From: Gammaproteobacteria bacterium
GTDB lineage: Bacteria; Pseudomonadota; Gammaproteobacteria; JAJDYQ01
NCBI GenBank assembly: GCA_965214035.1
Contig: OZ243932.1
Span: 937,215 to 1,001,214, forward strand
Reading direction: 5' to 3'
DNA length: 64,000 nt
The notes beneath the pieces were generated by a model. It was not told where the DNA came from and did no database searches. It was given only the letters and a program-made list of their open reading frames with translations. The position numbers and the translations under genes were made by a program. Position 1 is the stretch's first letter. Each line of letters begins with the position of its first letter. Shown here piece by piece: positions 5,538-45,940 of this stretch.

Positions 5538-6647
5538 ATGAACCTGTTGCGACTGACAATACTGGATCGCTATCTGCTGAAAGAAATTTTACAGACACTG
5601 GCCGCCATACTGCTGGTACTGATACTGATCATTCTGAGCAACAAAGCAGCCCGTTTCCTGAAGAATGCAGCATCCGGTGAATGGCCGGTAGAGATCATCA
5701 TGCCGATGCTGGGCCTGACGGCTGTCAGCAGTCTGGCGTTGATCATGCCTGTGGCGGTTTTTCTGGCCGTCCTGTCAGTAACCGGGCGGCTGTACAAAGA
5801 CAATGAAATGACCGTGCTCAACAGTTGCGGCGTGAGCACTTACCGGCTATATCGTCCGCTGGCAATACTCGCCATTATTTTAGGGGCAATAATCGGCCCC
5901 ATGTCATTCTACGTCGTACCGATTGCCAAGCAGGCCGCCCAGATACTGCAAACACAAGCCGAGCAGAACTCAGCAATAACCGGAATAGCACCGGGACGCT
6001 TCCACCAGAGCTCAGGTGGTCGGCGCGTCATCTACATTGAACACATCGATGCCGGTCAGGCCGAAAACATCTTTATCCACGAACGGGACAGAGGCCGATT
6101 CAGCCTGATAACAGCACAAACGGCCAGCCAGCAAGGCGAAGCCGGCACCCTGATTGACCTGCAGGACGGCTATCGCTATCAGGGCGGGCAGGAAACAGCC
6201 GGACACAGCGCCATACAATTCAAGCGCCACTGGATACAGGCCGGACAAAACAGCTCCACCCCCCCCGTGCCGGATCACGAAGCGCTTCAAACCCGGCAAC
6301 TGCTCGGTTCAGACAACCCGTACCACCGGGCCGAACTGCACATGCGGACAATAACCACCCTCAGCCCGATGCTGTTCGCCTTTCTGGGTTTGCCACTGGG
6401 GCGGCTGCAACCACGGGAAGGCCGCTATGGAAAAATCATGCTTGGCGTACTCATCTACATCATCTACTTCAAACTGCTTCGAGTCGGGCAGGAGCTCATG
6501 GAACAGGAAACACTGTCGCCATGGCCGGGGCTCTGGTGGGCACCTCTCGGACTGACCCTGTACCTGCTATGGACCCTGCGCTCCGAATCCGAAGTCAGAT
6601 CGACCAGCTACCGTACCAGCAAAGCCCGCACGACAAACAAAAAATGA
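5538..6647 (+). CDS. lptF: LPS export ABC permease LptF.
   Basis: It is a multi-TM permease with the LDRYLLKEIL N-terminus. Its stop overlaps the lptG start (ATGA). The ATG at 5538 is chosen over the TTG at 5499. Confidence 0.8.
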   Translation: MNLLRLTILDRYLLKEILQTLAAILLVLILIILSNKAARFLKNAASGEWPVEIIMPMLGLTAVSSLALIMPVAVFLAVLSVTGRLYKDNEMTVLNSCGVSTYRLYRPLAILAIILGAIIGPMSFYVVPIAKQAAQILQTQAEQNSAITGIAPGRFHQSSGGRRVIYIEHIDAGQAENIFIHERDRGRFSLITAQTASQQGEAGTLIDLQDGYRYQGGQETAGHSAIQFKRHWIQAGQNSSTPPVPDHEALQTRQLLGSDNPYHRAELHMRTITTLSPMLFAFLGLPLGRLQPREGRYGKIMLGVLIYIIYFKLLRVGQELMEQETLSPWPGLWWAPLGLTLYLLWTLRSESEVRSTSYRTSKARTTNKK

Positions 6648-7708
6648 GCATCCTGGACAGACACATCGGCCGCCACATCATAACCGGCTCCATCATGGCC
6701 CTGCTCATGCTGGTTGGCATTGATCTGGTATTCACCTTTGTTGGCGAGGCATCCGACATAGGCGAGGGCGACTACAGCCTGGGCAAATCCCTGCTGTATG
6801 TCATACTGACCGCACCGAGGCGGGCCTACGACTTCATGCCGATGGCCGCCATCACAGGCAGCCTGGTCATGCTTGGCGGACTGGCCGGGCAGAACGAATT
6901 TACCGCCATGCGCAGTGCCGGCGTATCGACCCGACAGATTGCCGGTGCAGTACTGAAGGGTGGGGCAGTGCTGATTGGGATAGTCATCATACTGGGAGAA
7001 GGCATTGCGCCCTATACAGAACCCTGGGCACAGCAAATGCGTACCTTCGCACGCACCCAGAGCACAGCCCTGAAAAGCCAGCATGGTATCTGGATACGCG
7101 ACGCAAACAGCTTTATCAACATAGGTCAGGTGCATCCGGACGGAAAGCTCTACAACCTCGACATCTACCGGCTGGACGACAACTACCGACTGCAACAACA
7201 CACCCGTGCAAAGCGTGCCGAATACAAAGATGGCACCTGGACCCTGTACAACCTGACCCGCACCCGCATGCAACCGCAGCGACTCCAGACCATCACCGAC
7301 CAACAGGCACCATGGGATGTCCTGCTGGAACCCGAACTGATCAAAGTGCTGGCGGTCAAGCCGGAACAACTGCCGATATGGCGGCTGCACACCTACATGG
7401 CCTACCTGCGCACCAACGGCCTCGACACACGGGCCTACGAATTTGCCCTGTGGGGCAAAATCACCGCCCCCTTCGTCATACCGGTCATGCTGATCATAGC
7501 CATACCATTCATATTCAGCCCGTTACGCACCACCGGCTCCGGTCAACGCATTCTGATTGGCATCATACTGGGCATCAGCTACTACCTGCTATCGCACCTT
7601 ATGGTCAGGGCAGGGCAGCTATACGCCCTCAACCCCATACTCAGCAACACACTGCCCATTGCCATCTTCCTGACAGCCGGCTGGCTGGGCTGGCGAACAA
7701 TACGCTAA
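6644..7708 (+). CDS. lptG: LPS export ABC permease LptG.
   Basis: MSILDRHIGRHI... matches the LptG N-terminus. The ATG at 6644 overlaps the lptF stop. Confidence 0.85.
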   Translation: MSILDRHIGRHIITGSIMALLMLVGIDLVFTFVGEASDIGEGDYSLGKSLLYVILTAPRRAYDFMPMAAITGSLVMLGGLAGQNEFTAMRSAGVSTRQIAGAVLKGGAVLIGIVIILGEGIAPYTEPWAQQMRTFARTQSTALKSQHGIWIRDANSFINIGQVHPDGKLYNLDIYRLDDNYRLQQHTRAKRAEYKDGTWTLYNLTRTRMQPQRLQTITDQQAPWDVLLEPELIKVLAVKPEQLPIWRLHTYMAYLRTNGLDTRAYEFALWGKITAPFVIPVMLIIAIPFIFSPLRTTGSGQRILIGIILGISYYLLSHLMVRAGQLYALNPILSNTLPIAIFLTAGWLGWRTIR

Positions 7709-10482
7709 CCCGTATTCCGCATACCGGCGGCGATGGCATTAATAGTACGCAATATCGGTTCAAGCCAGCGCTCACGTCCGGCCTCCGTACTCTCGTTTTT
7801 ATACCGTCGCAGCAACTCGACCTGAATAAAATTCAGCGGGTCCAGATACAGATTGCGGCGCGTCAGCGACAACAGAATATCCGGCGTTTCCGCCATCAGA
7901 CCATCAGTCCCGGCAACAGCGACAACCATGCGCACCGTGCGCAGATACTCAGTCCGGATAGCCAGAAAAACAGCCTCTGCGCGGGCCGGATCACTATCAA
8001 GGCTGGCATAAGCCTGAGCGATATCCATTTCAGCCTTGAACAGCGCCATCTGCGTATTACTCAAAAACGAATGAAAAAACGGCCACTCCTGATACATGCG
8101 GCGACACAACGCCAGCCGCTCCGGGTCATCACCGATCCACTGCTCCAGAGCGGAACCGACGCCAAACCAGGCCGGCAATGTATGCCGCGACTGCGCCCAG
8201 CCAAAGACCCACGGAATAGCGCGCAATGAACCTCTGGAGCGATCCTGTTTTTCACGATGCGAAGGACGGGAGCCGATATTCATCAGGCCGATTTCACTGA
8301 CTGGCGTTGCCTCATAAAAATAATCAACCAGCTCCTGCGAATCCATCAACTCACGATAAACACGCTCACCGACCTGCGCCATCTCCCGGACGGTCGCTCG
8401 GAACACCGCCGGCACCGCCACAACCGGCTGCACCAGGCCGAGGCTTGCCTTAATCAAACCAGTCATACCGACACCCAGCTCAAAGACAGCGGTTTCCGGA
8501 TTATTATACTTATAGAACAACACCTCCCCCTGCTCGGTGAAGCGGGTTTCCCCCTGCACAGACCCTGGCGGATAAGCCAGCAGCGTATCATGCGTAGGTC
8601 CGCCGCCGCGTGCCATCGTGCCACCCCGGCCATGAAACAGGCGAACCCGCACACCATACCGGCCGGCGATTTCAACAATCCGCTCCTGCGCCTCGTACAA
8701 AGACCAGGCCGAGGCAAAAATCCCGCCATCCTTACAGGAATCCGAATAACCCAGCATAACCTCCTGCAAGTTACCGGCCGCCTGCAACAACCGGGTATAG
8801 ACCCGATTCGAAAACAACTGCTCCAGAACCGGCTCGACATGCGCCAGATCATCGATAGTTTCAAACAGCGGTGCAACCAGCATACGACAAAACGGCGCAT
8901 CCGGCCGGCCACCGACCAGCCCACAGACAGAAGCCAGCAACAACACCTCCATCACATGGCTGGCATCACGTGTCATCGAAATCACATAGGCACCAAACGC
9001 CGCCGGGCTGACCTCCTGCTGCAACCGCTCCATAACCGCAAACACCTCCAGAGTCTGTGCGGTATCGGCAGACAAGGCCGAAACATCCACGCCGGCACAC
9101 GCACCGGACTCAAGCCAGCCGGCCAGCAGCGGCAACCGCTGCGGTTCATCCAGCGCCGCATAATCCACCTGCAACTGCTGTCTGACAATCTCGGCAACCG
9201 CCGCCGAATGCCTCGCCGACTCCTGCCGGACATCCAGCTTGACCAGATGAAAGCCAAAAGTTTCCGCCAGCCGGATCAAATCCGACAACTCCGCATCGGC
9301 CGTTGCCTGATCACCATGTGCAACCAGCGAATCACGGATCAAACAAAGATCATCGATAAAATCCTGCGCCTGCACATAACCCCTCGCCGCCGGCAGCGGT
9401 CCGCCATGTACAGGCTGCATGACAGACTGCAAAGTCTGCTCCAGTTGCACCCGCATCAGGGCCAGCTTGCGGCGATAAGGCTCCGACCGGAAGCGATTCG
9501 GATTGCTGGCAAAAGCCTCCGCACTGAGCCGGCCCTGAGTCTCCAGACTATCGAGCAACGCCTGCGACGGCTGACACATACCGTCAGAAAACGTCAGAAT
9601 ATTACCCAGTTGCACCACCCGGCTCCGATACTCACTCAAAATGACCTCGGCGTGCAGACGCACCGCCTTCTCCGTCGTCTCCGGCAATACAAAAGGATTA
9701 CCGTCACGGTCGCCGCCGATCCAGGAACCGAAGCTCAAAAAGGAAGGAATGCGGATACCGTCACCATAAACCCGCGCCGCGGCATCACCCATACGGCGAT
9801 AAAGCAGCGGCACAGCAATAAACAACGATTCACGGAAATAATACAGACCGGTACGGATCTCATCCTCAACAGAAGGCTTGCGCCCTCGCACCTCATCGGT
9901 TTTCCACAAAGTCTGGATTTGCGCCTCCAGTTGGCGATGCAGACAGTGGCGCTGCTCACGGCTGCTGCCGGTGCCACCCAGTTGCTCGGCCGTGACAAAA
10001 ATTCGCCGCATCAACACCATAATGGAACGACGTCGGGCCTCGGTCGGATGAGCGGTAAAGACAGGCCGAAAAGCCAGTTTCCCCAGCAGAGCCTGCACCT
10101 GCGACACACCCAGGCCACGCCGGTGCAATTCACGAAAAGTGGCATCAAACGAACCCGGCCACGACGTTCCGCTGCGGCCGGCCATAGCCCGTTGGCGGTG
10201 CATAAAAGACTCCTCGGCGATATGCAGCAGGCCGAAAAAGACCGTATAGGCCCGGATTACACGCGACAACAAACCCGGCTCAAGCCGGCGGATACGGCGC
10301 ATCAAACGCCGACGCAAGGCCGGATCATCCTTTTTCCGCAGTTTGCTGAAACCACGGCGCAAAGACTGCACCGTCTTCAAAACCTCAGACTCCTCCTGAG
10401 AACTCAATACATGACCGAGCACATCCCCGAACAGCCGCACCCGACTGCGCAATACCTTGTCATACCTCAACTCAATAGCCAT
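7705..10482 (-). CDS. ppc: Phosphoenolpyruvate carboxylase.
   Basis: The product is 925 aa and contains the VFTAHPTE and FHGRGGT motifs plus the C-terminal AGMRNTG. Confidence 0.9.
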   Translation of the reverse strand: MAIELRYDKVLRSRVRLFGDVLGHVLSSQEESEVLKTVQSLRRGFSKLRKKDDPALRRRLMRRIRRLEPGLLSRVIRAYTVFFGLLHIAEESFMHRQRAMAGRSGTSWPGSFDATFRELHRRGLGVSQVQALLGKLAFRPVFTAHPTEARRRSIMVLMRRIFVTAEQLGGTGSSREQRHCLHRQLEAQIQTLWKTDEVRGRKPSVEDEIRTGLYYFRESLFIAVPLLYRRMGDAAARVYGDGIRIPSFLSFGSWIGGDRDGNPFVLPETTEKAVRLHAEVILSEYRSRVVQLGNILTFSDGMCQPSQALLDSLETQGRLSAEAFASNPNRFRSEPYRRKLALMRVQLEQTLQSVMQPVHGGPLPAARGYVQAQDFIDDLCLIRDSLVAHGDQATADAELSDLIRLAETFGFHLVKLDVRQESARHSAAVAEIVRQQLQVDYAALDEPQRLPLLAGWLESGACAGVDVSALSADTAQTLEVFAVMERLQQEVSPAAFGAYVISMTRDASHVMEVLLLASVCGLVGGRPDAPFCRMLVAPLFETIDDLAHVEPVLEQLFSNRVYTRLLQAAGNLQEVMLGYSDSCKDGGIFASAWSLYEAQERIVEIAGRYGVRVRLFHGRGGTMARGGGPTHDTLLAYPPGSVQGETRFTEQGEVLFYKYNNPETAVFELGVGMTGLIKASLGLVQPVVAVPAVFRATVREMAQVGERVYRELMDSQELVDYFYEATPVSEIGLMNIGSRPSHREKQDRSRGSLRAIPWVFGWAQSRHTLPAWFGVGSALEQWIGDDPERLALCRRMYQEWPFFHSFLSNTQMALFKAEMDIAQAYASLDSDPARAEAVFLAIRTEYLRTVRMVVAVAGTDGLMAETPDILLSLTRRNLYLDPLNFIQVELLRRYKNESTEAGRERWLEPILRTINAIAAGMRNTG

Positions 10483-10645
10483 AAAAGCAACCCGTGCGAC
10501 ACCGATCCACCGATAAAACAGCGCATTATAACCGGTAAAATCCCTTCATAAAGGCAGCCGTGACCACAAACCCCGACCCAATACACCATAAATTTCGACA
10601 AAAAATACAATTTATGCTAAAAAAGCTGTTTTTTTGCTGACCGGC

Positions 10646-10654
10646 TGCTATAAT
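10646..10654 (+). promoter_or_regulatory. Candidate extended -10 promoter element (TGcTATAAT) reading toward giant gene copy 1.
   Basis: The sequence TGCTATAAT lies ~340 nt upstream of the ATG at 10992. It is conserved at 26632..26640 upstream of copy 2. Confidence 0.3.
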
Positions 10655-10812
10655 TCAGGAAACAAAGGCCAACTGAACCGCTTGCCAGTGATGGCAGGCT
10701 GATTCAAGATAAGCCCGACCCTGTCGGCGGGCACGGTATCCGGCCCTTGCAACGGATACCACAAACAGTAACCGATAATCGGAAATTGATAAAAACACAC
10801 GACGGAGGATAA

Positions 10813-10923
10813 CATGAAATCTGGACAAAAATGGATTCTGAACAGCAACAAGGGTCATGCCGTGATATGCAAAATCATCACAGTCATAAACAATGCCTTG
10901 CGACCGGCAGGCATCGATATTGA
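10813..10923 (+). CDS. Upstream leader ORF (uORF, 36 aa) preceded by a strong SD (GGAGG-N7-ATG).
   Basis: A GGAGGATAAC-ATG context. Relative to the copy-2 uORF it has one extra C at 10859-10861 and terminates at TGA 10921..10923, before the poly-C tract. Confidence 0.3.
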   Translation, partial: HEIWTKMDSEQQQGSCRDMQNHHSHKQCLATGRHRY

Positions 10924-10940
10924 CCTGTGTAAAAATACAG

Positions 10941-10968
10941 CCCCCCCCCCCCCCCCCCCCCCCCCCCC
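10941..10968 (+). repeat. Homopolymeric tract of 28 C followed by 7 A, 24 nt upstream of the giant-gene start.
   Basis: Counted directly in the sequence. The homologous tract upstream of copy 2 has 19 C. Confidence 0.95.
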
Positions 10969-10990
10969 AAAAAAATGAGAGGGTATATCT

Positions 10991-11016
10991 GATGCCGGCC
11001 GTCGATGCCGGCCGCT
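10991..11016 (+). repeat. 13-bp direct repeat, two units (GATGCCGGCCGTC and GATGCCGGCCGCT), containing the start codon.
   Basis: Direct comparison with copy 2 (26966..26978), which has a single unit. Confidence 0.9.
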
Positions 11017-14000
11017 CTGCGGTGCATTCCTGTCGCGAGGCAGGTGCCTCTGAGCCTCCTGGCCGGCTGACGCGCCGGTCTTTTTCCGACAGTTTCCATT
11101 CTGTGACAGCCCGCACCGCCGGCTGGCTGCGCCGTGCGGCGATGGTGTCATTGCTCGGACTGCCACTGCTGTTCGGGTTGGCGACGCAAGCGGTGGCGCA
11201 GACCGTGCCGACGCTCAAGGTCGAGGGTGATTTCTCTGTCACCGAAGGCGATTCCGGCACCATCACGCTCACCCTGAGCCAGGCGGCGAGCGGCACGATC
11301 ACATTTACCACCGGCAGCTACTTAACTGACTGCGACACACATAATTGTCCCACTGATATCTCTGGAGCGTCCGCATCCGATTTCTCTTCTGGCACGGGCT
11401 CCACGCGGACAATAACTTTCAACATCGGCGATACGACCAAGTCCTTGACCTTCATGACGACCGAAGACAGCGCAATCGAGTCAACAGAGATTTTCTCGAT
11501 TGGGATTGTTGATCTCGCTTCCAGCGAAGCCACCATCGATCCGGGTACACCGGCCGACAGAATTTTCTTTGGAACTTTTATGTCTTGGTGGGTCCGCATC
11601 CTCGATGACGATGCCCCGCCCATGATTTCCATTGCCGGCGGCAGTCCGGCCACCGAGGGAGCCGGCACGCTCACCTACACACTGACGGCGAACAAACCAC
11701 CGGCCACAGATCTGACCATTAATTTAACCGTCTCTGAAGACGAAACCGATGGCCAGAACTTTGTCGCTGCCGGTGACGAAAACAGTCAGGCCGTCACCTT
11801 CCCGGCCGGCACCACCGCGGCCAGCTACACGATTCCGATCACCGACGATGAAGTCGATGAAGCCAGAGGCGAGGTCACGGTGACAATCAATGACGGTACC
11901 GGCTATACCGCCGGCACCGACACGGTTACCATCACGGTGCGCGACGACGACAGAACCATCGTCACCCTGGCCGAAAATCCGGCCGGCGACCTCGATGAAG
12001 GCGCCCGCAAACAGATTACCCTGACCCTGAACCGTCCGCTGGTTTCGGGTGAGACCCAAGTCCTCTCGCTCGAACTTGGCGGCACCGCCACGGTGAATAC
12101 GGACTATACCCTGGCCGGCATACCGGCGGACGGCGTGCGTTACGAGGATCTGGCCTCCGGGAACCCTGGAATCGTATTTACCGGCCAGACTTCCGGCTCT
12201 GCCACGACCGCCACACTGACCGTGACGGCCATCGCAGATGGTATCTCTGACCCCGGCGAGGTCATCACCATGGAGTTTGCAACATCGGAATTAGTAAGCC
12301 CGGACGGCGATGCGGGAATACAGGACGCTCGGGGCGGCGGCCCGGTCAGCGCCACCCGAACGATTGCCTTCAGGATCACCGAACAACCGGCGCTGGTACT
12401 GAATCCATCCATGCTGACCATTGACGAGGGCGATACGGCGACCTACATCGTGTCTCTGGCCACCCAGCCCAATGCGTCAGTGGCCATTACTGTAAGCGGT
12501 CAGGCCGATACCGATCTGACCCTGAGCGGTGATACCCTGAGCGGTGATACCCTCAGCTTCACCATGATGAACTGGAACCAGCCGCAGACCATCACGGTCA
12601 CCGCCGGGTCGGACGACGACGCCCAATCGGATGACCCGATCGCCCTGTTGCACACCGCCACCGGCGGTAACTATGCCGGAGTCACCGGTGAAGTCACGGT
12701 CACCATCACCGAAGACGATACGGCCGGTATCACCGTACAGCCGACCACCCTGGCCGTGGATGAAGGCGGCACCAACAACTACACCGTGGTACTGACCTCG
12801 GCCCCGGCCGGCGAGGTCATCATCGAGGTCCGACCGGGCACGGTCGCCACCGTCGATAATGACATGCTGACCTTTGCCCAGAGTAACTGGAATCAGGCAC
12901 AGACGGTCACCGTGACCGGCATGGATGACGCGGTGTACAACGCCGGCGATGCACGCTCTGGCACTATCACCCACACCATCGGCACCGCTGACGGTGGTGC
13001 CTATACCACCGATCTGGAACTGGACTCTGTCACAGTCACCGTCACGGACGACGATAATCCGACATTGACTGTCAGCTTGCCAAATGGTGAAACAACCATC
13101 GAGGAAGGAAGTGGTTTTACCAGAGTTCGAATAACCGCAGACCCTGAACCGGGGGCGGGGGATAGTTCTCGCCTTATAAATCAAGATCCGTCAAATGATC
13201 TGTCAAATGTTCTATTTTTCAGCCCTGGTTATGGATGGTCTTCTTTCCGTGCACCGGATACCAGTTTCGACCCTGATATCGATTTTGAATTTAATATTGC
13301 TGACAACGATAACGATCAGCCCAATGGTACGCTGACTATCGACGTATCCGTCCTGAGAGGCTTTGCAGCCGGTTCTCCGTCCATGGTCACGCTGACCATC
13401 ATTGACAACGACCCGACCGAGGTCAGCCTGATTCGCACCGGCAGTACGGGCGCTATTGACGAGGGCGGCACCGTCGCCTTCACCGTACAACTCAGCCGTG
13501 CCCTGGTTGCCGGCGAGATTATTGACGTACCGCTGGTCATCGACGGCACCGGCGTCACCCCCGCCGACTGGAGCCTGAGTGCGACCGGTACCGGTGTGGT
13601 TCTGTCCAATGAGAACACAATGACTCCGCTGCTGCGCTTTGAGAATGCCGGCGCACAGACGGCTGAACTGACCTTGACTGCCATCAGCGACAATACGGTG
13701 GAAGGCGGTGGTTCCGAAACTTATGTTATCGACCTGGGTCTGGGCCTAGTCATTTCCCCTGATGAGCTCAATGGCATTGACCAAGGCAGTCTGAACACCA
13801 ATGTGGGCGGTGGTGCCGACCCGCACAGCGGCAGTAACACCTTCAGTGTGCAGGTCGATGATCCGACATTGACTGTCAGCTTGCCAAATGGTGAAACAAC
13901 CATCGAGGAAGGGGGGTCGTCCATTACGGCTCGATTCACTGCGAACCCGCCGGTGGCGCAATCTTTGGGCATCCCCAGTAATTTTAGAACTCTTACCACT

Positions 14001-17000
14001 GGTTATACCTCATTTACCAGCCTTGAAGATGACTCTTTGGTAAGACCAGTGGATATTGGATACTTTATTGATGAAAACAATATGGATCAGCCCAACGGCA
14101 CTCTGACCATCCATGTATCCGATTCACGGTTTGCAGCCGGTTCTCCGTCCATGGTCACGCTGACCATCATTGACAACGACCCGACCGAGGTCAGCCTGAT
14201 TTACACCGGCAGTACGGGCGCTATTGATGAAGGCCAGGCCGTTACCTTCACCGTACAACTCAGCCGTGCCCTGATCGCCGGCGAGATTATTGACGTACCG
14301 CTGGCCATCGACGGCACCGGCGTCACTCCCGCCGACTGGGGCCTGACAGAGCAGGCGGGCATAGCCAATACCGGCGTCAGCCTGCACGACACCGATACGG
14401 CCGTGCCCTTCATCCGCTTCAGCGGCGCCGGTGCCGAGACCGCCCTGCTGCAACTGGCCGCGGCGCTGGACGACACCGATGAAGGTGGTTCCGAGACCTT
14501 TATGATTGCCTTGGGCCAAGACGGCTCAACAACCAACGGCTTTGATCTTCCCGGTCGTGCCACCAATGTCGGCGGCGGTGCCGACCCGGACGGCGACAAC
14601 AATCGCTTTGAGTTAGTCGTCAATGACGAGGGAAGCACCGTGTTGTCCATTGGCATTGACTCGGTAACCGATGCGGAAGGCGATGCCGGTGAGACGACCT
14701 TCAAAACGGTTACGGTCAGCCTGTCGCGGCCCTACAGCCGGGACCTGGTGGTGAATGTGCGTCGTTCCGGCTCAGCCACCCGTGGCACCGACTATGAGCT
14801 GGTCGGTACCGGTGACAACAATGCCCTGATCAACTTTAATCCGGTCAGGAGATTCACCATCACCGCGGGTGCCACCAGCGTCCAGTTCCGTATCCGTGTC
14901 ATCGGCGACACGGTCTTTGATATCGATGAGACGGTGGTACTAACGTTGATCGGTCTGACCACCGGTATTAGCGAGGCCGTCACGGATGTCGTCATTTCTA
15001 ATATCGTCGGTGCGGTCACCCACACGATTGAAAATGACGATCCCGGCGGTAAAGTCACGGTCAGCCGGTCGGCGCTGAGCATGGAAGAAGCCGATGGCGC
15101 GGCCAGCTACACCCTGGTGCTGGACAGTCAGCCGGGCGATGAAATCATCTTGACGGTGGCCGGTGGTGAAGCCGATACAGCCACCGTCAACACAACCGGC
15201 GGCATGGCCGGCATCGAACAGACCCTGACCTTTACCACGATGAACTGGGATCAGGCACAGACCGTGCTGGTGGCTGCGGTCAACGACGATGAAGACAATG
15301 CCGGTGGCAGTCGCAGGCTCACCCTGACCCATACCATTACCACCGGTGACGATGCCGGTTATTCGACCGGTCTGCCGGTGGATGCGGTCGTTGTCACGGT
15401 GGTGGACGATGATAGAACCATCGTCACCCTGGACGAAAATCCGGCCGGCGACCTCGATGAAGGCGCCAGCAAACAGATTACTCTCACACTGAACCGCGGT
15501 CTGGTCAATGGCGAAGAGCTGGTCGTCCCGCTGACCTTCGGCGGTGATGCCACACGGGGCACAGACTACACCCTGATGGAGGTCGCAGCGAATGGCGTGA
15601 GCTATGCCAATCTGACCGGCAGCGACGACCCCGCCGTCACATTCATCGGCCCGTCCTCCGGCACTACCGCCATGACGGCCACCCTGACCCTGAGAGCCAT
15701 TGCCGACAGTACCTCCGACCCCGGCGAGAGCGTCACCATTGTACCGGGTACCTTGACCGACACCTCTCTGGACGGCGGCGGCACGGTCACCGGCAGTCTG
15801 GCTTTTAACATCATTGAACGAGTGGCGCTGATACTGGGTCCCGACCGTTTGATGGTATCGGAAGGTATGCAAACAGCGAGCTACACGATTCGTCTGGCGA
15901 GTGAGCCGACGGCACCGGTGACGGTAGTGGTGACCGGTTATGTCGGCACCGGCCTGACGCTGGATAACGACGAATTGATTTTCACGGCGGCCAACTGGAA
16001 CATTGCCCGGCAGGTAACACTGACCACAGCGGCGATGGACAGCGACTTGGCCGGCAGCACCCTGCAGTTGCGGCACACGGCCTCGGGTGGCAATTACCTC
16101 TCGGTGACCGCCGACCTGAGTGTGACCCTGCTGGATGACACGGCCGGTGTGGTGGTCATGCCCAGTGGTGACAATACCTTGGTCAGCGAGGACGGTGCCC
16201 GCACGGACGATTACACACTGAGGCTGAGCACACAACCGGTCGGTGATGTGGTGGTGCGGGCGACGGCCGGCACCGGCCTGAGTGTGAACGATGCGGCCGC
16301 GGCCGATCTGACCTTTACCGCTACCAACTGGAATCAGGCACAGACGGTGACGATAGCGGGCATTGACGATGACATTGCCAGCGGTGCGCTGCGCACCGTG
16401 TCGGTGACCCATACCATTGTCAACAGTGCAGACAGTGGCTATCCGGAGGACGCCCTGCGCATCGCCAATCTGGACGTCATGCTGATAGACGACGATACCG
16501 CCGGTCTGCTGTTGTCATCATCGGATCTGACGCTGTCGGAAGGCGACACCATCAGCTACACGGTGCGTCTGACCAGCCAGCCGACCGCGGTGGTGTCGGT
16601 GACCATTACCAGCGACAACGAGGATCTGACAGCGGGCAATACCCCCTTGATGTTCAGTACGGACAACTGGTCCATGCCGCAGACGGTGCTCCTGACGGCC
16701 AACGCAGACGATGATTCGGACGACGAGCAGGCGCAACTGACGCACCGCGTGGCGGGGGGTGACTATGGCGCGATCAGCGAGGTCATTTCGGTGCGCATCA
16801 CGGATCGCTCGGCCGGTGTGGATATCACGCAGAGCGGCGGCAATACGATAGTCCGCGAGGATGGCGGCGAGGACAGCTACACACTGGTCCTCAATGCGGC
16901 ACCGCGCGGTGATGTGACCCTCACGGTGACTGCCGCAGCCGGTATAACGGTGGATACGGACAGCCTGACCTTTACAACCGGTAACTGGCAGACACCGCAG

Positions 17001-20000
17001 CCCGTTACGGTGACCGGTGTCAATGACGACCTGGATAATCCCGATGATGGGCGCGAGGTCATGATCCGCCATGCGGTCAGTGGTGCCGGCGACAGTGCCG
17101 GCTATACCCCGGCCCTGTCGATTGCGCCGGTATCGGTGACGGTGCTGGACGACGACACGGCCGGGCTGCGCTTCAGCCGTTCGGTGCTGGCGGTGGTTGA
17201 GGGCGGCAGTACGAGCTACGGTGTGCGTCTGACCAGCCAGCCGACCGCGGTGGTGACCGTGACCATTGCCAGCGACAACGGGGATCTGACAGCGGGCAAT
17301 ACCCCCTTGATGTTCAGTACGGACAACTGGCCCATGCCGCAGACGGTGACGGTAACGGCGGGCACGGACAGCGATATGGACAATAACGATGTCGCCCTCA
17401 GCCACACGGCCACGGGCGGCGGCTATAACTCGGTCAGCGCCACCCTGGGCGCGATGCTGCTGGAAGGCGGTACTGCCAGCGTCAGCATTGTGCAGAGCGA
17501 CGGTCGCACCATCGTCACGGAGGGGGTCAGCACGGATTTCTATGAGGTGGTGTTGAATACGGCACCGGACCGCGATGTGACCGTGAGAGTCAGTGCCGAC
17601 AGTGGTGTGACGGTCAATGGTGCGGCCACACTCGATCTGGTCTTTACCCCGACCAACTGGCATGAGGCGCAGCCGGTCATGGTAGCGGCGGTGGACAACA
17701 ATGCCGATGACGGTGTGCGCACGGCCGATATCAGCCATATCCTGAGTGTTGGGGACAATAATGACTATGACCGGACACTGACCATTGCCGGGGTAACGGT
17801 GACGGTGAACAGAGATCCAGATGATAGCCGTGGGCGGCTGGTGACTTTGAGTGGCGGTGATCAAGAAGGGTCGACGCGGTCTTTCAACTTTGTCTTCGAA
17901 AGTAGCCCAGGGCGAAGTCTGGGTGCTGACGAGGTCATGACGCTGCCGTTGATACCTGGTGGCGACGCGGTGCGCGGTCAGGATTATCAGGTGCGTTGTG
18001 AGCGCAACCCGGCAGGACGCGGATCGCACCCTGCGGTTTCCTGTGTCGAGTCAACAGACGGTCAACTGATGTTCATTCTGGATGGCACACAGATATCTCC
18101 CGGCAGACGAACATTCAGATTCACCCTGCCTTTGGAGGTGGAGTTGCTGGAGGACAATATGGCGGAACCGGTCGAGACCCTGACGCTGCGCCTTGGTGAG
18201 AACGGTCAGGACTTTCGCATCCCAATCATGGATGCGCCATCGACCGTGAGCGTGGAGTTTAACAAGTCAATCTATCGCAACAATGAAAATTTCCACTCCA
18301 TAACTCTGATACTTGAGATCAGTCCGCTACTGGGTCGTGCCATCGACTTGCCGCTGCTGTTTATTGACGGTACCGCACAGGCCGGATCAGACTTTGAACC
18401 GATCAGTTCCACCGTCCTTAATTTTACTTCTGAGGGGCGGGCATTTTTTGCTATCACACTCTTGGATGATCAGATAGCCGAAGGCGACGAGAGATTCACG
18501 GTCGTGATTGATGAAACCCGACTGCCGGACTTTATCACCGTTGGCACCAATGCCGCGGCCACAGTCATCATGACCGATAATGATGAGCGCGGGCTGGTTT
18601 TTGATTCCGATACACTGACTCTGGCGGAGGGTGGCACGGGCAGCTACACGGTGCGTCTGTCCAGCCAGCCGACCGATGAGGTGGCGGTGGTGATCGCCGG
18701 TCAGGCCGGTACCGACCTGATGCTGGACCGGGACATTCTGACCTTTACCACGGCGAACTGGAATCAGGCACAGATGGTGACGGTGATGGCCGAAGATGAC
18801 GACGATGGCGATGCCGATCGCATTGTGCTGGTGCATACGGCCTCCGGCGGTGACTATGGACTGACAGCCCGCGTGCAGGCCGACATCATCGACAGGGAGG
18901 CACCGGAGGTGCGGCTGAACAAGGAGGCCATCACGGTCAGCGAGGGCGGCAGCGGCGACAGCTATACGCTGGTGCTGCACACCGAACCGGCCGGCACCGT
19001 GACGGTGACTCTCGCTCCGGCGGCCGGCATAACGGTGCAGCCGGGTAGCGTGACCTTCACGGTGGATAACTGGAATACGCCGCAGGCGGTCACCGTGACC
19101 GGTGTGAATAGTGATGAGATTGACCGGGGTGATCGCACGGTGACCATTGTTCATACCATCACTGCCACCGATGACGCCGATGACTATCCGGAGGATCTGC
19201 GGATAGACCCGGTGCGTGTGACGATAGAGGAAGACGATGAGGCCGGCGTGATGATTGTCGAGAGCGGTGACCGTACGGCGGTCAGTGAAGACGGTGGCAT
19301 CAGGGATGACTACACGGTGGTGCTGACCTCACAGCCGGCCGCTCGTGTGGTGGTAACCGCCACGGCCGCGGCCGGTGTCAGTGTGGATACCCAGTCTCTG
19401 AGCGGTGTGCAGAACACCCTGACCTTTACCACCCTGAACTGGCAAAGCCCGCAGACGGTGACGGTGACCGGGGTGGATGTAGACACCGTGGATCGCGGGG
19501 ACCTTGATGTGTCGATCACTCATGCCATCACGACCACGGCCGGTGGTTATGTGAAAGAGTTGTCGATTGATTCGGTACCGGTGCAGGTGATTGACAATGA
19601 TGCGGCGAACCGCCTGCTGTTTGAGCTGGTTGATCCGGCAGCCGATGTGCTGGTCACGGAAGGTTCGGAGGTGGCCTACACGATGCAACTGGTGGGTCAG
19701 CCGCTGGCCGATGTCACGGTCGATATCAGCGGCCATGACGGCACGGATGTGACGCCGGCCCCGACCCGCCTGACTTTTACCACGCAGAACTGGAATGCCG
19801 GTCAGACGGTGACCCTGACGGTGGCGGCCGATGACAGCGGCGACGGCGAGCGTGTCACCCTGACGCACCGCGCCTCCGGCGGCGGCTATGATGGCACCGA
19901 GGTGGCACTGGAGGTGGCCATCACCGATAGTGATATATCGGGCGTGAGCATCAGCAAAGATACCCTCGTGGCCATCGAGAATGAGGCCGTTACCGACAGC

Positions 20001-23000
20001 TACACGGTGGTGCTGGACATACCGCCGGCCGGTGATGTCACTATCCAGGGTGAGATTCCAATTCAGGGTGGCACACTGGATATCAGACTGGTTTTCACAA
20101 CTGTCAACTGGAATCAACCGCAGACGGTCAGCATATTTGGAAGCATTTTCCTGGCAGACAACATCGACAATCCTGGTGGTGAACGCACCGCCACGACCAT
20201 CATGCATACGGTCACTTCCACGGACAGTGGCTACGACGGCATTGAGGTTGACGATGTGACCGTCACTGTGACAGATGTCGATCCCACTACGGTAACCCTG
20301 TCGGGTGCGGCGCTGGATGTGGTTGAGGGCACCGAGCGTACCCTCACCGTGTCGCTGGAGCGGGCGCTGGTGGCGGGTGAAGTGCTGCCGGTACCGCTGA
20401 CCTTTGCCGGCACCGCCACCCGCGGCACGGATTACACCCTGGAGGGTGTGCCAGCGACGGGCATTGGCTATGAGAACCTGAACAGCGGCAATGCGCAGGT
20501 GACCTTTACCGGTGGCACCGGTGCGGTCGGTACCGCGACCCTGACATTCAGAGCCACACCGGATGCGGACGATGAAGGCAGTGGTGAGACGGTGACGATT
20601 GGTCTGGGCACCCTGGATGAGAACTCCGGCACCGGTCTGAACGGCGGTGGCACTGGTACCAGCAGTCTGGCACCATTCCGCATTATAGAAAAGCCGATGA
20701 TCAACATTGCGGGCGGTCCGGCGGTGACCGAGGGCGGCAGTGTGACCTTTACCCTGACGGCCAGTGAAGCGCCGCTGTCGGATCTGACCATCAACCTGAT
20801 GGTGACGGATGCCGTGCACAGTGATTTTCTGGCGGCGGCTCGCGGAGGCAGGCAGAGTATCACCTTCGTCGGCGGCACGACCTCGGTCAGCTACGAAATT
20901 CCGACGCTGGCCGATATCGATGACGAAGCCGGCGGCACAGTGATGGTGGCGCTGCTGGACGGTGATGGTTATGTGGCGGGCAGCGCACCATCGGCCACCA
21001 CAATGGTCAATGACGACGATGCCACCACGGTGACACTGGCAGGCACAGACGATGATGTCGGCGAGGGGGCACGCAAGGAGCTGACCGTGACGTTGAGTCG
21101 GGGTCTGGTGGCGGGTGAGGTACTGCCGGTTGCGCTGTCTTTTGCCGGCACGGCAACCCGCGGTACGGACTACACCCTGATGGAGACGGTAGCGAATGGC
21201 GTGAGCTATGCCAATCTCAATGGTGGTGGCAGTGCAACGGTGACCTTTACCGGCCCGGCGGCGGGTGTCGGCGTCACCGAGGCCCGACTAAGTCTGAGGG
21301 CTGAGTTGGATGGAACAACCGAGGGCCTCGAGACTGTCATCATCGGCCTGGGCACGCTGGATGCGGATTCCGGTACGAATCTGGGCGGTGGTGCGACCGG
21401 TGTGGATGAACTGGGTGATTTCCAGATTCAGGAAACCCCGGAGATAGTGCTGGAGCGCAATAGCCTGATGCTGACCGAGCAAGGCAGTGCGACCTATACG
21501 GTCGGCCTGTCTGTATCACCGACGGCCGATGTGACGGTCAGGATCACCGGTCAGGTTGACACGGATCTGCAGGTGGATGCCGACACGCTGATCTTCTCTC
21601 AAACCAACTGGAGCACGGCGCGCACCGTGACGCTGATGGCGGTATCGGATACCGACAGCGAGGACGAGGCACCGGTGATGCTGAGGCATACGGCTACCGG
21701 TGGCAATTATGGTTTGGCGATAATGCGGACGGTAACGGTATCGATTGCGGACAACACACCGGGTCTGGTGCTGTCAACGGGCAGCCTGGATATGGAAGAG
21801 AATGAGGCCGAGAGCTATACAATCCGGCTGGCGATTCGTCCGATGGCGGATGTGACGGTGAGTGTATCTTCCGGGGATGCGCCCCGCCTGCGGGTGACCG
21901 GCGGTGACAGCCTGACCTTTACGCCGACCAACTGGAATCGGGCGCAAAGTGTGACGGTGATGGCTGAGGATGACGACGACAGCGACGCCAACCAGGTGAC
22001 GCTGACCCACACGGCGGATGCCGGCTACGGTTCGGTGACAGGAGATATCACGGTGGATATTGCCGATGACGACATACCGCGTGTGGTGCTCGGTGTTGAT
22101 GAATTGACTGTAATCGAAGGCGGCAGTGCGAGCTACACGGTAGAGCTGGGTACCCGTCCATCGGGCAATGTGACGATCGCACTGAGCGGTCAGGGCAGCA
22201 CTTTGAGGCCGGACAGGTCCGAGCTGACTTTTGATGCGGGCAACTGGGGTCAGGCGCAGACCATCACGCTGACGGCGGTCATGGACAGTAATACGACCCA
22301 TGATCAGGTGACGCTGATCCACACCGCCAGTGGCTATAGTGCGGCCCCGGCCGATCTGCCGGTGACCATCACGGACAGCACGCCGCAGTTGAGCTTCTCG
22401 CAGACCACATTCAATCTGGACGAAGGTGACAGCACGACCTACACGCTGGAGCTGTCAGCCGAGCCGGTCGGCACGGTGACGGTCACGCTGAGCGGTCACG
22501 AACGCACTGAACTGACGCCGGAACCGACCGAACTCACTTTTACACAGGACAACTGGAGTGAAGCCCAGGCCATCACCCTGACGGCCGGCACGGACAGCAA
22601 CAGTGTGGATGAGACCATCACGCTGACCCATAGCGCGGATGCCGGCTACGGTGCGGTGACGGAAGAGGTGACGGTCACGGTCCGGGATGCGGATACACCG
22701 CGCCTGATACTGAATACCGATGAATTGATCGAAGGCGGCAGTGCCACCTATAGAGTGACCGAGCAGGGCAGTGCGACCTACACGGTGCGGCTGGGCACGC
22801 AGCCTCGGGTGGATGTGACGGTCACGTTGACCGGGCATGAGGGCAGTGATCTGGTACCGACCCCGGCCCGTCTGGTGTTTGGTCGGGACAACTGGAACCG
22901 TGCGCAGCAGGTGACGCTGACGGCACGCGATGACGATGACAGCGTGAATGACGCGGTGACACTGTCTCACCGGGCCAGTGGCGGGGCTTATGCGGGTGTG

Positions 23001-24842: not shown

Positions 24843-24850
24843 GAAGTCCG

Positions 24851-24927
24851 TAGCCGGCTCTTCTCTCTGCCGGCTGTTGCGGGGCCGGATTCCATCCACA
24901 TTGTCACCGGCTTCGCTTTTTTATGGC
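24851..24927 (+). terminator. Stem-loops plus a T6 run downstream of giant gene copy 1 (candidate intrinsic terminator).
   Basis: The hairpin AGCCGGC-N10-GCCGGCT is followed by GCGGGGCCGG...CCGGCTTCGC-TTTTTT. The copy-2 homolog is a perfect 10-bp stem. Confidence 0.4.
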
Positions 24928-25014
24928 TCCAACCGTCCATGCCTGACACGCTCAGGCATAGGCGGCAGGCTGTCCAGATTGCCCGACTGGCTCAGAGATA
25001 TATTGCCTCGTGAA

Positions 25015-25252
25015 TCAGGCTGATATTACGACGCAAAAGGAATTTCTCAGGTTGTGGTTGGCTTCGCATAACTTATCCAGTAGTTCAGGGGTCGATATTT
25101 CACATACTGTCGCCGTCTCTAATGCCATAACGGTGGAATTGGGACATATACTCCCAGCCCATCCAGACCCATAATCTCGCCGGGCAGGTAAAAGCCGGTT
25201 ATCTGCTCCCGGCCCTGCTCGTTAATGATGAATGTTTTATAAGAACCTGAGC
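25015..25252 (-). pseudogene. Decayed FNR/CRP-family regulator remnant (internal frameshift, both ends lost).
   Basis: The translated pieces are FIINEQGREQITGFYLPGEIMGLDGLG and ALETATVCEISTPELLDKLCEANHNLRNSF. They match the E. coli FNR segments [24 protein letters not shown] and [29 protein letters not shown]. Confidence 0.5.
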
Positions 25253-25311
25253 TGACAGCGAAAATCCTTCATGATGCTGCTTTCTGCATTAGGATAGCCA
25301 TATCCGTTTGA

Positions 25312-26100
25312 ATGGTTATCCAGAACATGGTTTTGCCTCCAAAACGACAGGGCCGCTCGCTTTCCGAATGGTTTCAGACAACAGCAGGAGCAGACTTACT
25401 GGAAAAGGAAAATACCCTGTTGAAGAAAGTCCTGCCGGAGCTGTTTGGCTATCATCTACTGTGGACCGGGGAAGGGAATTATTGGTCGGGTGTTGCAGCT
25501 TCATCGGTCGCACACCATGTCCGCCTGCAGGCACCGGATAAATCCGCTGCCAAAGATTGTGATGTCATCGGCAGCCATACCAGCCTGCCTGTTCAGCGGG
25601 ACAGCATTGATGTTGTCATTCTGCCGCATCTTCTGGAGTATGACCGACACCCACATGCGATCCTGAGAGAGGCCGAACGTGTACTCCATCCAAACGGCCA
25701 TATCATCATTCTGGGATTTAATCCGGTCGGCTATCATGGGTTCTGCCGGGTATTATCCGGATTCCGGGGTAATATGCCGTGGCAGGGACATTTTTATCAT
25801 CCCTTGCGCATCCGAGACTGGCTTAAATTGCTTGGTTTTGTTGTTAAGTCAGTAAGTTACACTGCTTTTTTACCGTCAATTCGATATGGAAAAATGGCCC
25901 GATGCAGCAGATTTATTGAAAAGGCGGGGCAGGGGATGCTTGCGCCGTTGAGTGGTGTGTATATGATCACCGCTCGTAATTTGATCGTTGCCTCCAATGT
26001 GATCAAGCCTGGGCGGAGCAGGAAAAAGGCGGTTCTTGATGGGGTGGTAGAACCGACAACCCGCATCTGTTTGCCGAATAAGCGGCTCCGGGAAGTATGA
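25312..26100 (+). CDS. Class I SAM-dependent methyltransferase, YafS-like (duplicate copy).
   Basis: The product is 262 aa and carries the MTase motif [11 protein letters not shown]...[13 protein letters not shown]. It is 98-99 percent identical to 35770..36558. Confidence 0.7.
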   Translation: MVIQNMVLPPKRQGRSLSEWFQTTAGADLLEKENTLLKKVLPELFGYHLLWTGEGNYWSGVAASSVAHHVRLQAPDKSAAKDCDVIGSHTSLPVQRDSIDVVILPHLLEYDRHPHAILREAERVLHPNGHIIILGFNPVGYHGFCRVLSGFRGNMPWQGHFYHPLRIRDWLKLLGFVVKSVSYTAFLPSIRYGKMARCSRFIEKAGQGMLAPLSGVYMITARNLIVASNVIKPGRSRKKAVLDGVVEPTTRICLPNKRLREV

Positions 26101-26146
26101 GCAAAGTAGAAATTTTTGTCGATGGTGCCTGTCGCGGTAATCCCGG
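26097..26146 (+). pseudogene. rnhA: 5' stub of rnhA (the first ~17 codons, [17 protein letters not shown]), cut off at the duplication junction.
   Basis: The stub is identical to the start of the intact rnhA at 36555. It then runs into antisense ppc sequence. Confidence 0.75.
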
Positions 26147-26470
26147 CCACGACGCTCCGCTGCGGCCGGCCATAGCTCGTTGGCGGTGCATAAAAGACTC
26201 CTCGGCGATATGCAGCAGGCCGAAAAAGACCGTATAGGCCCGGATTACACGCGACAACAAACCCGGCTCAAGCCGGCGGATACGGCGCATCAAACGCCGA
26301 CGCAAGGCCGGATCATCTTTTTTCCGCAGTTTGCTGAAACCGCGGCGCAAAGACTGCACCGTCTTCAAAACCTCAGACTCCTCCTGAGAACTCAATACAT
26401 GACCGAGCACATCCCCGAACAGTCGCACCCGACTGCGCAATACCTTGTCATACCTCAACTCAATAGCCAT
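26147..26470 (-). pseudogene. ppc: Duplicated 5' fragment of ppc (first 108 codons). In the ORF track it is part of the chimeric ORF 26003..26569.
   Basis: ~98 percent nt identity to 10159..10482. The fragment retains the ppc promoter region. Confidence 0.8.
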
Positions 26471-26801
26471 AAAAGCAACCCGTGCGACACCGATCCACCG
26501 ATAAAACAGCGCATTATAACCGGCAAAATCCCTCCATAAAGGCAGCCGTGACCACAAACCCCGACCCAATACACCATAAATTTCGACAAAAAATACAATT
26601 TATGCTAAAAAAGGCTGTTTTTTGCTGACCGGCTGCTATAATTCAGGAAACAAAGGCCAACTGAACCGCTTGCCAGTGATGGCAGGCTGATTCAAGATAA
26701 GCCCAACCCTGTCAGCAGGCACGGTATCCGGCCCTTGCAACGGATACCACAAACAGTAACCGATAATTGGAAATTGATGAAAACACGCGACGGAGAATAA
26801 C

Positions 26802-27032
26802 ATGAAATCTGGACAAAAATGGATTCTGAACAGCAACAAGGGTCATGCCGTGATATGCAAAATCATCACAGTCATAAACAATGCCTTGCGACCGGCAGGC
26901 ATCGATATTGACCTGTGTAAAAATACAGCCCCCCCCCCCCCCCCCCCAAATGGGAGGGTATATCTGATGCCGGCCGCTCTGCGGTGCATTCCTGTCGCGA
27001 GGCAGGTGCCTCTGAGCCTCCTGGCTGGCTGA
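26802..27032 (+). CDS. Upstream leader ORF (76 aa) of giant gene copy 2. It reads through the poly-C as Pro codons and through the ancestral start ATG.
   Basis: GGAGAATAAC-ATG context. It is in frame with the ATG at 26967 and stops at 27032, because of the missing 13-bp unit. Confidence 0.3.
   Translation: MKSGQKWILNSNKGHAVICKIITVINNALRPAGIDIDLCKNTAPPPPPPNGRVYLMPAALRCIPVARQVPLSLLAG
26929..26947 (+). repeat. Homopolymeric tract of 19 C, followed by only 3 A, upstream of giant gene copy 2.
   Basis: Counted directly in the sequence. Confidence 0.95.
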
Positions 27033-35368: not shown

Positions 35369-35376
35369 GAAGTCCG

Positions 35377-35446
35377 TAGCCGGCACCTCTCTGCCGGCTG
35401 TTGCGGGGCCGGATCCATCCGTATTGTCACCGGCCCCGCTTTTTTA
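35377..35446 (+). terminator. Intrinsic terminator downstream of giant gene copy 2.
   Basis: GCGGGGCCGG-N17-CCGGCCCCGC is a perfect 10-bp stem, followed by TTTTTT. Confidence 0.55.
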
Positions 35447-35474
35447 TGGCTCCAACCGTCCATGCCTGACACGC

Positions 35475-35712
35475 TCAGGCATAGTACGACGCAAAAGGAA
35501 TTTCTCAGGTTGTGGTTGGCTTCGCATAACTTATCCAGTAGTTCAGGGGTCGATATTTCACATACTGTCGCCGTCTCTAATGCCATAGCGGTGGAATTGG
35601 GACATATACCCCCAGCCCATCCAGACCCACAATCTCGCCGGGCAGGTAAAAGCCGGTTATCTGCTCCCGGCCCTGCTCGTTAATGATGAATGTTTTATAA
35701 GAACCTGAGCTG
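35475..35712 (-). pseudogene. Decayed FNR/CRP-family regulator remnant (second copy).
   Basis: The degenerate pieces match those at 25015..25252. The ORF track lists 35197..35586 (MALETATVCEISTPELLDKLCEANHNLRNSF...). Confidence 0.5.
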
Positions 35713-35769
35713 ACAGCGAAAATCCTTCATGATGCTGCTTTCTGCATTATGATAGCAATATCCGTTTGA

Positions 35770-45722: not shown

Positions 45723-45808
45723 CCAATTTGATGGTGCCCGGGGCCGGAATCGAACCGGCACGGGGTTTCCCCCGAGGGATTTTAAGTCCCTTGCGTCTAC
45801 CAATTTCA
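45723..45808 (-). tRNA. tRNA-Leu (anticodon TAA).
   Basis: The reverse complement folds as a cloverleaf with a long variable arm. The anticodon loop is CTTAAAA, and the CCA end is present. Confidence 0.85.
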
Positions 45809-45940
45809 CCACCCGGGCAGATTGGGAGGTATTGTTGCGATATCAAGCCATATACGGCGGCATCATTTGCCCAAGAACCACCCTACCCTGTCTCTTTTTT
45901 ATCAACCCTTGAACGCATGAGAATCGGGCATTAAAAAATA

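Follow-up and report, generated by a model that had tools for sequence, protein, structure and literature searches.

In the 64,000-nucleotide stretch analysed here (the window, on contig OZ243932.1 of an uncultured gammaproteobacterium), two paralogous genes for giant autotransporter-like proteins each carry a long poly-C tract in the leader. We think it quite possible, if somewhat short of probable, that the tract forms a contingency locus of the slipped-strand (simple-sequence-repeat) kind, through which expression of these giant surface proteins is controlled. A standard hypermutable-repeat contingency locus explains the data, and the arrangement appears to fit the 5′-end homopolymer and short-repeat switches already well documented for autotransporter and adhesin genes. 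What is particular to this locus is the tract length of 19–29 bases, its position inside a short open reading frame (ORF) led by a Shine–Dalgarno (SD) sequence and against the SD of the main gene, its reading as polyproline, and the replacement of one repeat type by another among homologues. We refer to the two leaders in the window as copy 1 and copy 2, to related loci as L081–L085 and to database proteins by P-numbers; uORF denotes the upstream ORF. The elements on which the argument turns are these:

10804–10808, forward strand: SD of the uORF, GGAGG, 5 nt before its ATG (GGAGA in copy 2 and L085)
10814–10978, forward strand: uORF of copy 1, 54 codons plus TGA, with the poly-C read as Pro9; identical to P0002
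10941–10968, forward strand: poly-C tract of copy 1, 28 C, followed by A7 (10969–10975)
10977–10983, forward strand: giant-gene SD, reading GAGAGGG here and GGGAGGG in other copies, spaced 8 nt from the ATG; complementary to the last bases of the C-tract, with which it can pair
10991–11016, forward strand: 13-nt direct repeat of two units (GATGCCGGCCGTC and GATGCCGGCCGCT) that holds the main ATG
10992–24842, forward strand: giant autotransporter-like gene 1, 4,616 codons from ATG 10992
26802–27032, forward strand: uORF of copy 2, 76 codons plus TGA, crossing C19 in frame with ATG 26967
26929–26947, forward strand: poly-C tract of copy 2, 19 C, followed by A3 and the SD GGGAGGG (26952–26958)
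26984–35368, forward strand: giant gene 2, a mechanically called ORF of 2,794 aa

What the analysis shows is the tract, its variation in length among near-identical leaders, three reading-frame phases, the SD–ATG contexts and a predicted pairing. In both copies an uninterrupted run of C lies close to where the giant gene begins, at matching positions in the duplicated leader, and the two poly-C tracts are the sole homopolymers of at least 9 bases in the window. Across four leaders that are otherwise 96–100% identical, the tract lengths, read from consensus assemblies, are C28 (copy 1), C19 (copy 2), C29 (L085) and C20 (P0001). The third of these comes from P0009, a cluster-mate on metagenome contig L085, where C29 and A3 stand ahead of a 3,056-aa giant gene. 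P0001 represents a third copy, with the changes G14S and A16T, six prolines and two 13-nt units; because its peptide has six prolines, its tract would be C20 followed by A3.

Copies 1 and 2 differ in the tract (C28 versus C19), in the A-run that follows (A7 versus A3), at 10978 (A versus G) and in a 13-nt indel at 10991–11003, and every length difference between them falls within a repeat, be it the C-run, the A-run, a T-run or the 13-nt repeat. The A at 10978, a G in copy 2, is what places the TGA of copy 1 inside the main SD. The 13-nt repeat has a single unit in copy 2 (26966–26978) and two in copy 1, L081 and L085, and two units are also implied by the peptides of P0001 and P0132. Because these relatives all point to two units, copy 2 carries a 13-nt deletion, and the loss of one unit puts its ATG 26967 in a different frame from the 2,794-aa ORF. 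Since 13 is not a multiple of 3, the number of units is a frame switch in itself.

The start context of the uORF is GGAGGATAAC-ATG in copy 1 (ATG 10814–10816) and GGAGAATAAC-ATG in copy 2 (ATG 26802), and an SD and a start codon lie at a working distance from each other in copy 1, copy 2 and L085. Both copies encode MKSGQKWILNSNKGHAVICKIITVINNALRPAGIDIDLCKNTA-Pro(n), the prolines coming from the poly-C. An earlier, sequence-only reading of this DNA had already located an SD-led uORF ATG in both leaders, and both are present, the first at 10814 rather than 10813. It had also attributed a frame difference between the copies to an extra C near 10859 in copy 1 (gcccgtg versus gccgtg), which would make the uORF stop at 10921–10923. 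This extra C is absent: in the leader alignment, positions 10814–10940 and 26802–26928 are 100% identical from the ATG to the poly-C, and the TGA at 10921–10923 lies in another frame. The uORF of copy 1 runs through C28 as Pro9-Lys-Lys and ends at TGA 10976–10978, which falls within the SD GAGAGGG at a distance of 16 nt from the main ATG. The uORF of copy 2 crosses the poly-C in frame with the downstream ATG (26967), as had been proposed, and stops at 27030–27032, in the loop of a terminator-like hairpin; this ATG, called ancestral in the earlier reading, does not share the frame of the 2,794-aa ORF. Small indels thus do re-phase the uORF against the giant ORF, with the poly-C, the A-run and the 13-nt repeat, not a short C-run, as the variable elements.

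Simulation of tract lengths gave three phases. In the fused phase, the frame opened by ATG 10814 or its counterpart continues into the giant ORF; copy 1 reaches this phase at C27/C30, L085 at C28/C31 and copy 2 at C17/C20. In a second phase, the uORF stops at the cTGATG that overlaps the main ATG (10990–10994), which requires C26/C29 in copy 1, C27/C30 in L085 and C18/C21 in copy 2; the earlier statement that the copy 1 frame crossing the tract ends there, one nucleotide (+1 C) away from the present sequence, was correct. The third phase is seen in all three intact leaders; copy 1 then has its stop within the SD, and L085 and P0001 have theirs some 60 nt into the giant ORF. The fused phase occurs in none of the four leaders, and neither does the TGATG stop–start configuration, which was reached in silico only, at +1 C. 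We also considered the A AAA AAA ahead of the copy 1 TGA as a slippery site and set it aside: a −1 slip leads no further than the frame of TGATG, and no other copy has A7.

Such an ORF is seldom formed by chance. Among dinucleotide shuffles of the 280-nt leader, an SD-led ATG ORF entered the tract in 3.6%, and one of at least 42 codons did so in 0.5%. Between copies 1 and 2 there are no differences in the uORF and nine substitutions in the 307 nt upstream of it, a contrast that counts in favour of a contingency locus with a translated leader ORF; the identity of the uORF could reflect either constraint or a gene-conversion tract. Codon log-odds close to 0 and a G+C content at third codon positions of 0.50, compared with 0.56 in housekeeping genes, are uninformative on whether the uORF is coding.

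Further weight comes from two distant homologues that carry other frame-shifting repeats at the equivalent site. L082 has an 8-nt unit, (GCCGGATC)x7.2, at 5774–5831, and L083 a 7-nt unit, (TCGCCGG)x11.6, at 471–551. Both repeats lie directly 3′ of a conserved GGTATAAT with TTGACA 23–29 nt upstream, in the place equivalent to the poly-C/SD region, and each is crossed by an SD-led ORF that is unrelated to the other and to the window peptide. The 13-nt repeat of the window (GCCGGNC) resembles the 7- and 8-nt units of L083 and L082 in sequence.

The genes downstream of the tracts encode predicted surface proteins. They combine Calx-beta/fn3-like repeats, a divergent autotransporter beta-domain and a signal peptide, as expected for products under the control of a contingency locus; the beta-domain PF03797 was detected at E = 3e-10 in the paralogue at 16–2466, and gene 1 gave a weak match to TIGR01414. 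That paralogue, whose PF03797 beta-domain is clear, belongs to a third giant gene; only its 3′ end, at 16–2466, falls in the window, and its leader lies beyond it. Gene 1 begins with an Arg/Ser-rich N-terminal extension of about 50 aa, followed by the signal-peptide core MVSLLGLPLLFGLATQAVAQ (11142–11201). The extension family is tiny, with six matches among 1.84 billion representatives.

We place the start of the giant protein at ATG 10992, and hence the tract within its messenger RNA (mRNA) leader, because the SD is strong and conserved and is used in leaders that have no tract. The main SD (GGGAGGG, 8 nt, ATG) followed by MPAVDAGRS is common to L081, L085, P0003 and P0133, even where there is no poly-C, and the start MPAVDAGRS of gene 1 is also the one called in P0003, P0133 and L085. 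A second reason is the length of the presequence from this ATG, about 70 residues, which matches that of the extended signal peptides of large secreted adhesins.

A mechanism can be proposed from the order of the cassette, in which an SD-led short ORF (ATG 10814), the poly-C read as polyproline and 3–7 A would lead into the SD and ATG (10992) of the giant gene. Tract length modulo 3 would set the fate of the short ORF, which would be fused in frame, stopped at cTGATG or read in the third frame. Because the 3′ end of the tract can base-pair with the G-rich SD, ribosomes moving along this ORF through the tract would open, occupy or run over the main initiation site, and the giant protein would be made at a heritable level that differs with the tract-length class. 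Transcription and translation of the short ORF, the identity of the 'on' phase and any effect on expression are inferred. Two further elements bear on this scheme:

10646–10654, forward strand: extended −10-like TGCTATAAT, a candidate leader promoter, invariant in copy 2 and L085
11061–11085, forward strand: terminator-like hairpin GGCCGGC-UGACGC-GCCGGUC followed by U5, in the N-terminal extension

In minimum-energy RNA folds, the end of the tract and the SD form a hairpin (CCC.CCC-AAAU-GGG.GGG). A GC-rich hairpin with a pyrimidine run is predicted in the place equivalent to 11061–11085 at 27026–27050, in L082 (~5899–5930) and in L083 (~623–650), with differing stem sequences; none of these terminator-like predictions is statistically significant. 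A scan for promoters gave only one hit, weak (9/12) and not above expectation, and none spanning the tract. A repeat in the promoter spacer, as in porA, opc or fim, was rejected: TTGACC (10920–10925) and TATATC (10985–10990) are 45–59 nt apart across all copies, where about 17 would be needed.

A more specific version of the contingency locus, in which the poly-C is a heritable three-state translational switch within a translated leader ORF and slippage takes effect by uORF coupling or attenuation and not by way of the frame or promoter of the giant gene itself, seems to us rather unlikely. In it, ribosomes past 6–10 proline codons would stop on the main SD, reinitiate at cTGATG or read on; an SD sequestered by the C-tract would be unmasked, and the C-rich leader and terminator-like hairpin would be shielded from Rho-dependent or intrinsic termination. 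Stalls at polyproline are relieved by elongation factor EF-P. The idea of the sequence-only reading that the leader looks like a designed termination–reinitiation device is not established, because no leader is in the TGATG phase (0/4), neither the uORF end nor its peptide is conserved, and nonsynonymous changes outnumber synonymous ones 2:1.

Several observations weigh against the contingency locus as we describe it. The uORF has three variable sites among copy 1, copy 2 and L085, two nonsynonymous and one synonymous; the same three leaders have about 13 variable sites in the 307 nt upstream of the uORF and four in the 167 nt after the tract. A search of 5.8 billion proteins with the uORF peptide returned only two clusters, both from one 2,513,604-bp genome: P0002, which is copy 1 itself, and P0001, the third copy. 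The peptide thus has no relatives outside the same species cluster, L081 and P0132 have no uORF, and the window peptide and the upstream ORFs in L082 and L083 showed no homology to one another. Nor is the stop position conserved (for example as an overlapping TGATG) among the four leaders: relative to the main ATG, the uORF ends at −16 in copy 1, +59 in L085, +59 in P0001 (as deduced from its peptide) and +63 in copy 2. L081 and P0132 share with the window the SD (GGGAGGG or GGGAAGG), the ATG and the N terminus MPAVDAGRS/MLAIDAGRS; upstream they are quite different, with CCTCCC or TCCCC in place of the tract. All intact leaders (3/3) are in one phase, which fits selection but would also fit little switching. 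The predicted tract–SD folds are no better in energy than those of shuffled sequences. Finally, homopolymer lengths of 19–29 bases are error-prone in assemblies (coverage is 10x for L085 and 2x for L083), so the exact phases are uncertain and may be wrong. Searches of the leader against Rfam at gathering and lenient thresholds, and exact-pattern scans for it in genome and metagenome contig collections, gave no match.

Known systems place the locus among several kinds of switch. In Neisseria meningitidis, NalP and AusI have poly-C in the coding region, AutA and AutB have AAGC repeats just after the start codon, and NadA is likewise among the documented 5′-end repeat switches (PMC5472700). As in NalP/AusI and AutA/AutB, a C tract or short repeat here sits at the 5′ end of an autotransporter gene where slippage shifts the frame, and each paralogue has its own tract. 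Unlike in these Neisseria genes, the best-supported start (ATG 10992) is downstream of the tract, the tract is much longer (19–29 C), and in each copy examined a separate ORF of 54–78 codons crosses it. The hmw1A and hmw2A genes of Haemophilus influenzae have transcribed 7-bp repeats in the 5′ untranslated region (PMC2424069, PMC12721329); these pair with a G-rich arm, and the long hairpin is cut by RNase III in a graded form of control (PMC12721329). The likeness to hmw lies in a variable leader repeat, very large paralogous adhesin genes, a pyrimidine-rich repeat that pairs with a G-rich segment (here by prediction) and the 8- and 7-nt repeats of L082 and L083 at the equivalent place. By contrast, hmw has no upstream ORF, whereas the window has a homopolymer against the SD and inside an SD-led ORF.

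Homopolymers in the leaders of surface or sensory genes are also known from Moraxella catarrhalis uspA1, with a poly-G tract upstream of the ORF (PMC7302503), and Helicobacter pylori tlpB, with a leader G-repeat targeted by the small RNA RepG (PMC8295292). In both, length sets the expression level, as we propose here; their tracts are 6–16 bases long and untranslated, and tlpB needs a C/U-rich small RNA, whereas no G-rich partner is known here. Leader-peptide devices form a further group, among them tnaC with Rho, the proline-codon leader mgtP of Salmonella mgtCBR, and SD-sequestering hairpins opened by upstream translation. The window resembles these attenuators in its short SD-led ORF, in a run of proline codons that should stall ribosomes, and in a possible SD-sequestering stem with a downstream terminator-like hairpin. 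Attenuators sense physiology and have conserved peptides and stop positions; here the input would be the length of a DNA tract, and neither peptide nor stop is conserved.

These precedents bear on the alternative that best survives, which we regard as unlikely though a serious contender: the poly-C is a leader repeat that works without the uORF, whose presence is incidental. The length of the tract could affect the structure of the mRNA (by sequestering the SD), how stable it is or how it is processed, the loading of Rho onto C-rich RNA, pairing with a small RNA rich in G, or transcription that begins at the nearby −10-like TGTAAAAAT (10928–10936). An incidental uORF would agree with its unconserved peptide and neutral-looking substitutions, hmw, uspA1 and tlpB all offer models, and pairing of C-tract and SD is predicted. 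The position of the L082 and L083 repeats right after the conserved GGTATAAT, with TTGACA upstream, moreover suggests that the repeat starts the transcript. Set against this, if TGCTATAAT is the promoter, an accessible SD–ATG on the mRNA would be translated through the tract, and an ORF of this type is rare by chance (0.5–3.6%). The sole promoter-like hit is the weak one described above, and the small-RNA route lacks a known partner.

Classical in-ORF phase variation, in which ATG 10814 is the start of the giant gene itself, the poly-C is part of the coding sequence, the fused class is ON and all sequenced copies are OFF, is in our view improbable. In one length class the frame of ATG 10814 does stay open all the way into the giant gene, in the manner of NalP and AusI. 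Copy 2, with its main ATG out of frame, is one C away from fusion yet retains an intact 2,794-aa (8.4-kb) ORF; L083 has an SD-led ATG 5′ of its repeats in the giant frame, with no canonical start between the repeats and the signal peptide. Changes between L082 and L083 in the sequence 5′ of the signal peptide lean to third codon positions (5/3/12), a suggestive but marginal bias. However, the fused phase is absent from all four leaders, the L083 coverage is only 2x, and the upstream peptide is unconserved. From ATG 10814 the hydrophobic core would begin about 110 residues in, which speaks against a workable export signal, and Pfam searches with the upstream peptide and with the hypothetical fused N terminus found neither ESPR nor any other domain. 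A strong, conserved SD–ATG also follows the tract directly and serves as the start in tract-less leaders.

The insert in copy 2 bears on the same question. The signal-peptide core of gene 2 lies at ~27512–27575, beyond a cluster of palindromes at 27176–27470 that resemble repetitive extragenic palindromes (REPs). The cluster, which extends over 27100–27470 between the shared leader and the signal peptide and contains GTCATTCCCGCGAAGGCGGGAATCC-type units, includes a hairpin with 38-nt arms (27365–27466); TTG 27512 is the one canonical start close to the signal peptide. The giant frame is open across it, as it is in 6% of shuffles, and at p ~0.06 we set this aside as a sign of upstream initiation.

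It is still less probable that the tract is neutral, an expanding pyrimidine run that arose from a CCTCCC-like anti-SD stretch in a recently duplicated, recombining leader of a partly decaying family and owes part of its variation to assembly error. The CCTCCC or TCCCC at the tract site in L081 and P0132, the frameshifting 13-nt deletion and REP insertions of copy 2, and the truncation of P0003 and P0011 beside a transposase could all be read in this way, and long-read-style contig names make homopolymer errors possible. Yet distant homologues have independent repeats of other unit sizes at the same site, the 19–29-base tracts are perfectly pure in four leaders, and contingency loci typically go with genes for surface proteins, as here. 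An origin of the poly-C by expansion from a pyrimidine stretch like that of L081 is nevertheless what the comparison suggests. In L081, at 9975–9993, a perfect anti-SD hairpin (CCUCCC-AAAU-GGGAGG) lies over the giant-gene SD with no poly-C. Farther along, at 10977–12185 and in its flanks, L081 has a truncated 302-aa paralogue and then an IS256-type transposase; IS1595 transposases, DNA methyltransferases and DotD/TraI-type genes for type IV secretion lie near this paralogue, which suggests that the L081 region is mobile or decaying.

The pilE G-quadruplex (G4) of Neisseria drives gene conversion, and a last proposal, that the template-strand G28 run (able to form a G4, or an i-motif) is not an expression switch and instead initiates recombination among the giant paralogues, is highly improbable: the many mosaic repeat families common to the giant genes, a leader joined to at least four different passenger genes with breakpoints inside the signal peptide, and a uORF-to-tract segment that is identical between copies while the upstream flank differs are purely circumstantial, no donor and recipient structure emerges from them, and the 7- or 8-nt repeats of the distant homologues form no G4.

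The genomic setting of the poly-C leaders is a tandem segmental duplication, whose parts are the following:

7705–10482, reverse strand: ppc (phosphoenolpyruvate carboxylase)
10483–10991: divergent intergenic space between ppc and a 4,649-codon ORF
10506–11135, forward strand: leader module copy 1 (putative promoter, uORF, poly-C, SD/ATG and N-terminal extension of the giant gene)
26142–26470, reverse strand: duplicated 5′ fragment of ppc
26494–27099, forward strand: leader module copy 2

The copy 1 module is 96–98% identical to 26494–27099 and to L085 1232–1860, with the L085 homology starting at ~10506. The block 10154–11135 is 98% identical to 26142–27099 and takes in 329 nt of the ppc 5′ end; because the duplicated block carries this fragment, copy 2 is a segmental duplicate of the copy 1 locus. 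The duplication joins 10154–26141 to 26142–36600 at the junction 26141/26142. Each unit consists of the ppc 5′ fragment, the leader, a giant gene, a 262-aa methyltransferase-like gene and the first ~44 nt of an RNase H-like ORF. The methyltransferase-like genes (25312–26100 and 35770–36558) are 98% identical, and the giant ORFs are unequal (4,649 versus 2,794 codons). In L085, at 886–1245, the neighbour to which the leader module is attached is a methyltransferase-like gene cut short at residue 116, and the giant gene is followed by rpoZ and spoT; this arrangement indicates that recombination has moved the leader cassette to several loci. P0010, which had clustered with these proteins, is an unrelated eukaryotic BCCIP protein and was discarded as a clustering artefact. 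A ppc-based search for the locus in a species-level genome set found relatives at most 69% identical, with a different neighbour and neither leader nor giant gene, and the closest complete genome (2.57 Mb; pepA 80% identical) keeps the order pepA-lptFG-ppc with no giant gene beside ppc. Elsewhere in the window, genes for tRNA-Leu(TAA), tRNA-Cys(GCA) and tRNA-Gly(GCC) cluster at 45732–46198 on the reverse strand.

For annotation, the 54–78-aa 'genes' called at this site would be phase artefacts of the leader, and frames across such tracts are not to be trusted without read-level data. With its tract inside an SD-led ORF and directly against the main SD, and with other repeats at the same site in its homologues, the locus could be a compact model of how slippage feeds translation initiation. 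The contingency-locus strategy is documented mainly in host-adapted pathogens. If the tract does switch expression, an uncultured gammaproteobacterium with a 2.5-Mb genome would hold at least three giant adhesin-like genes (2,800–4,600 aa) as independent contingency loci.

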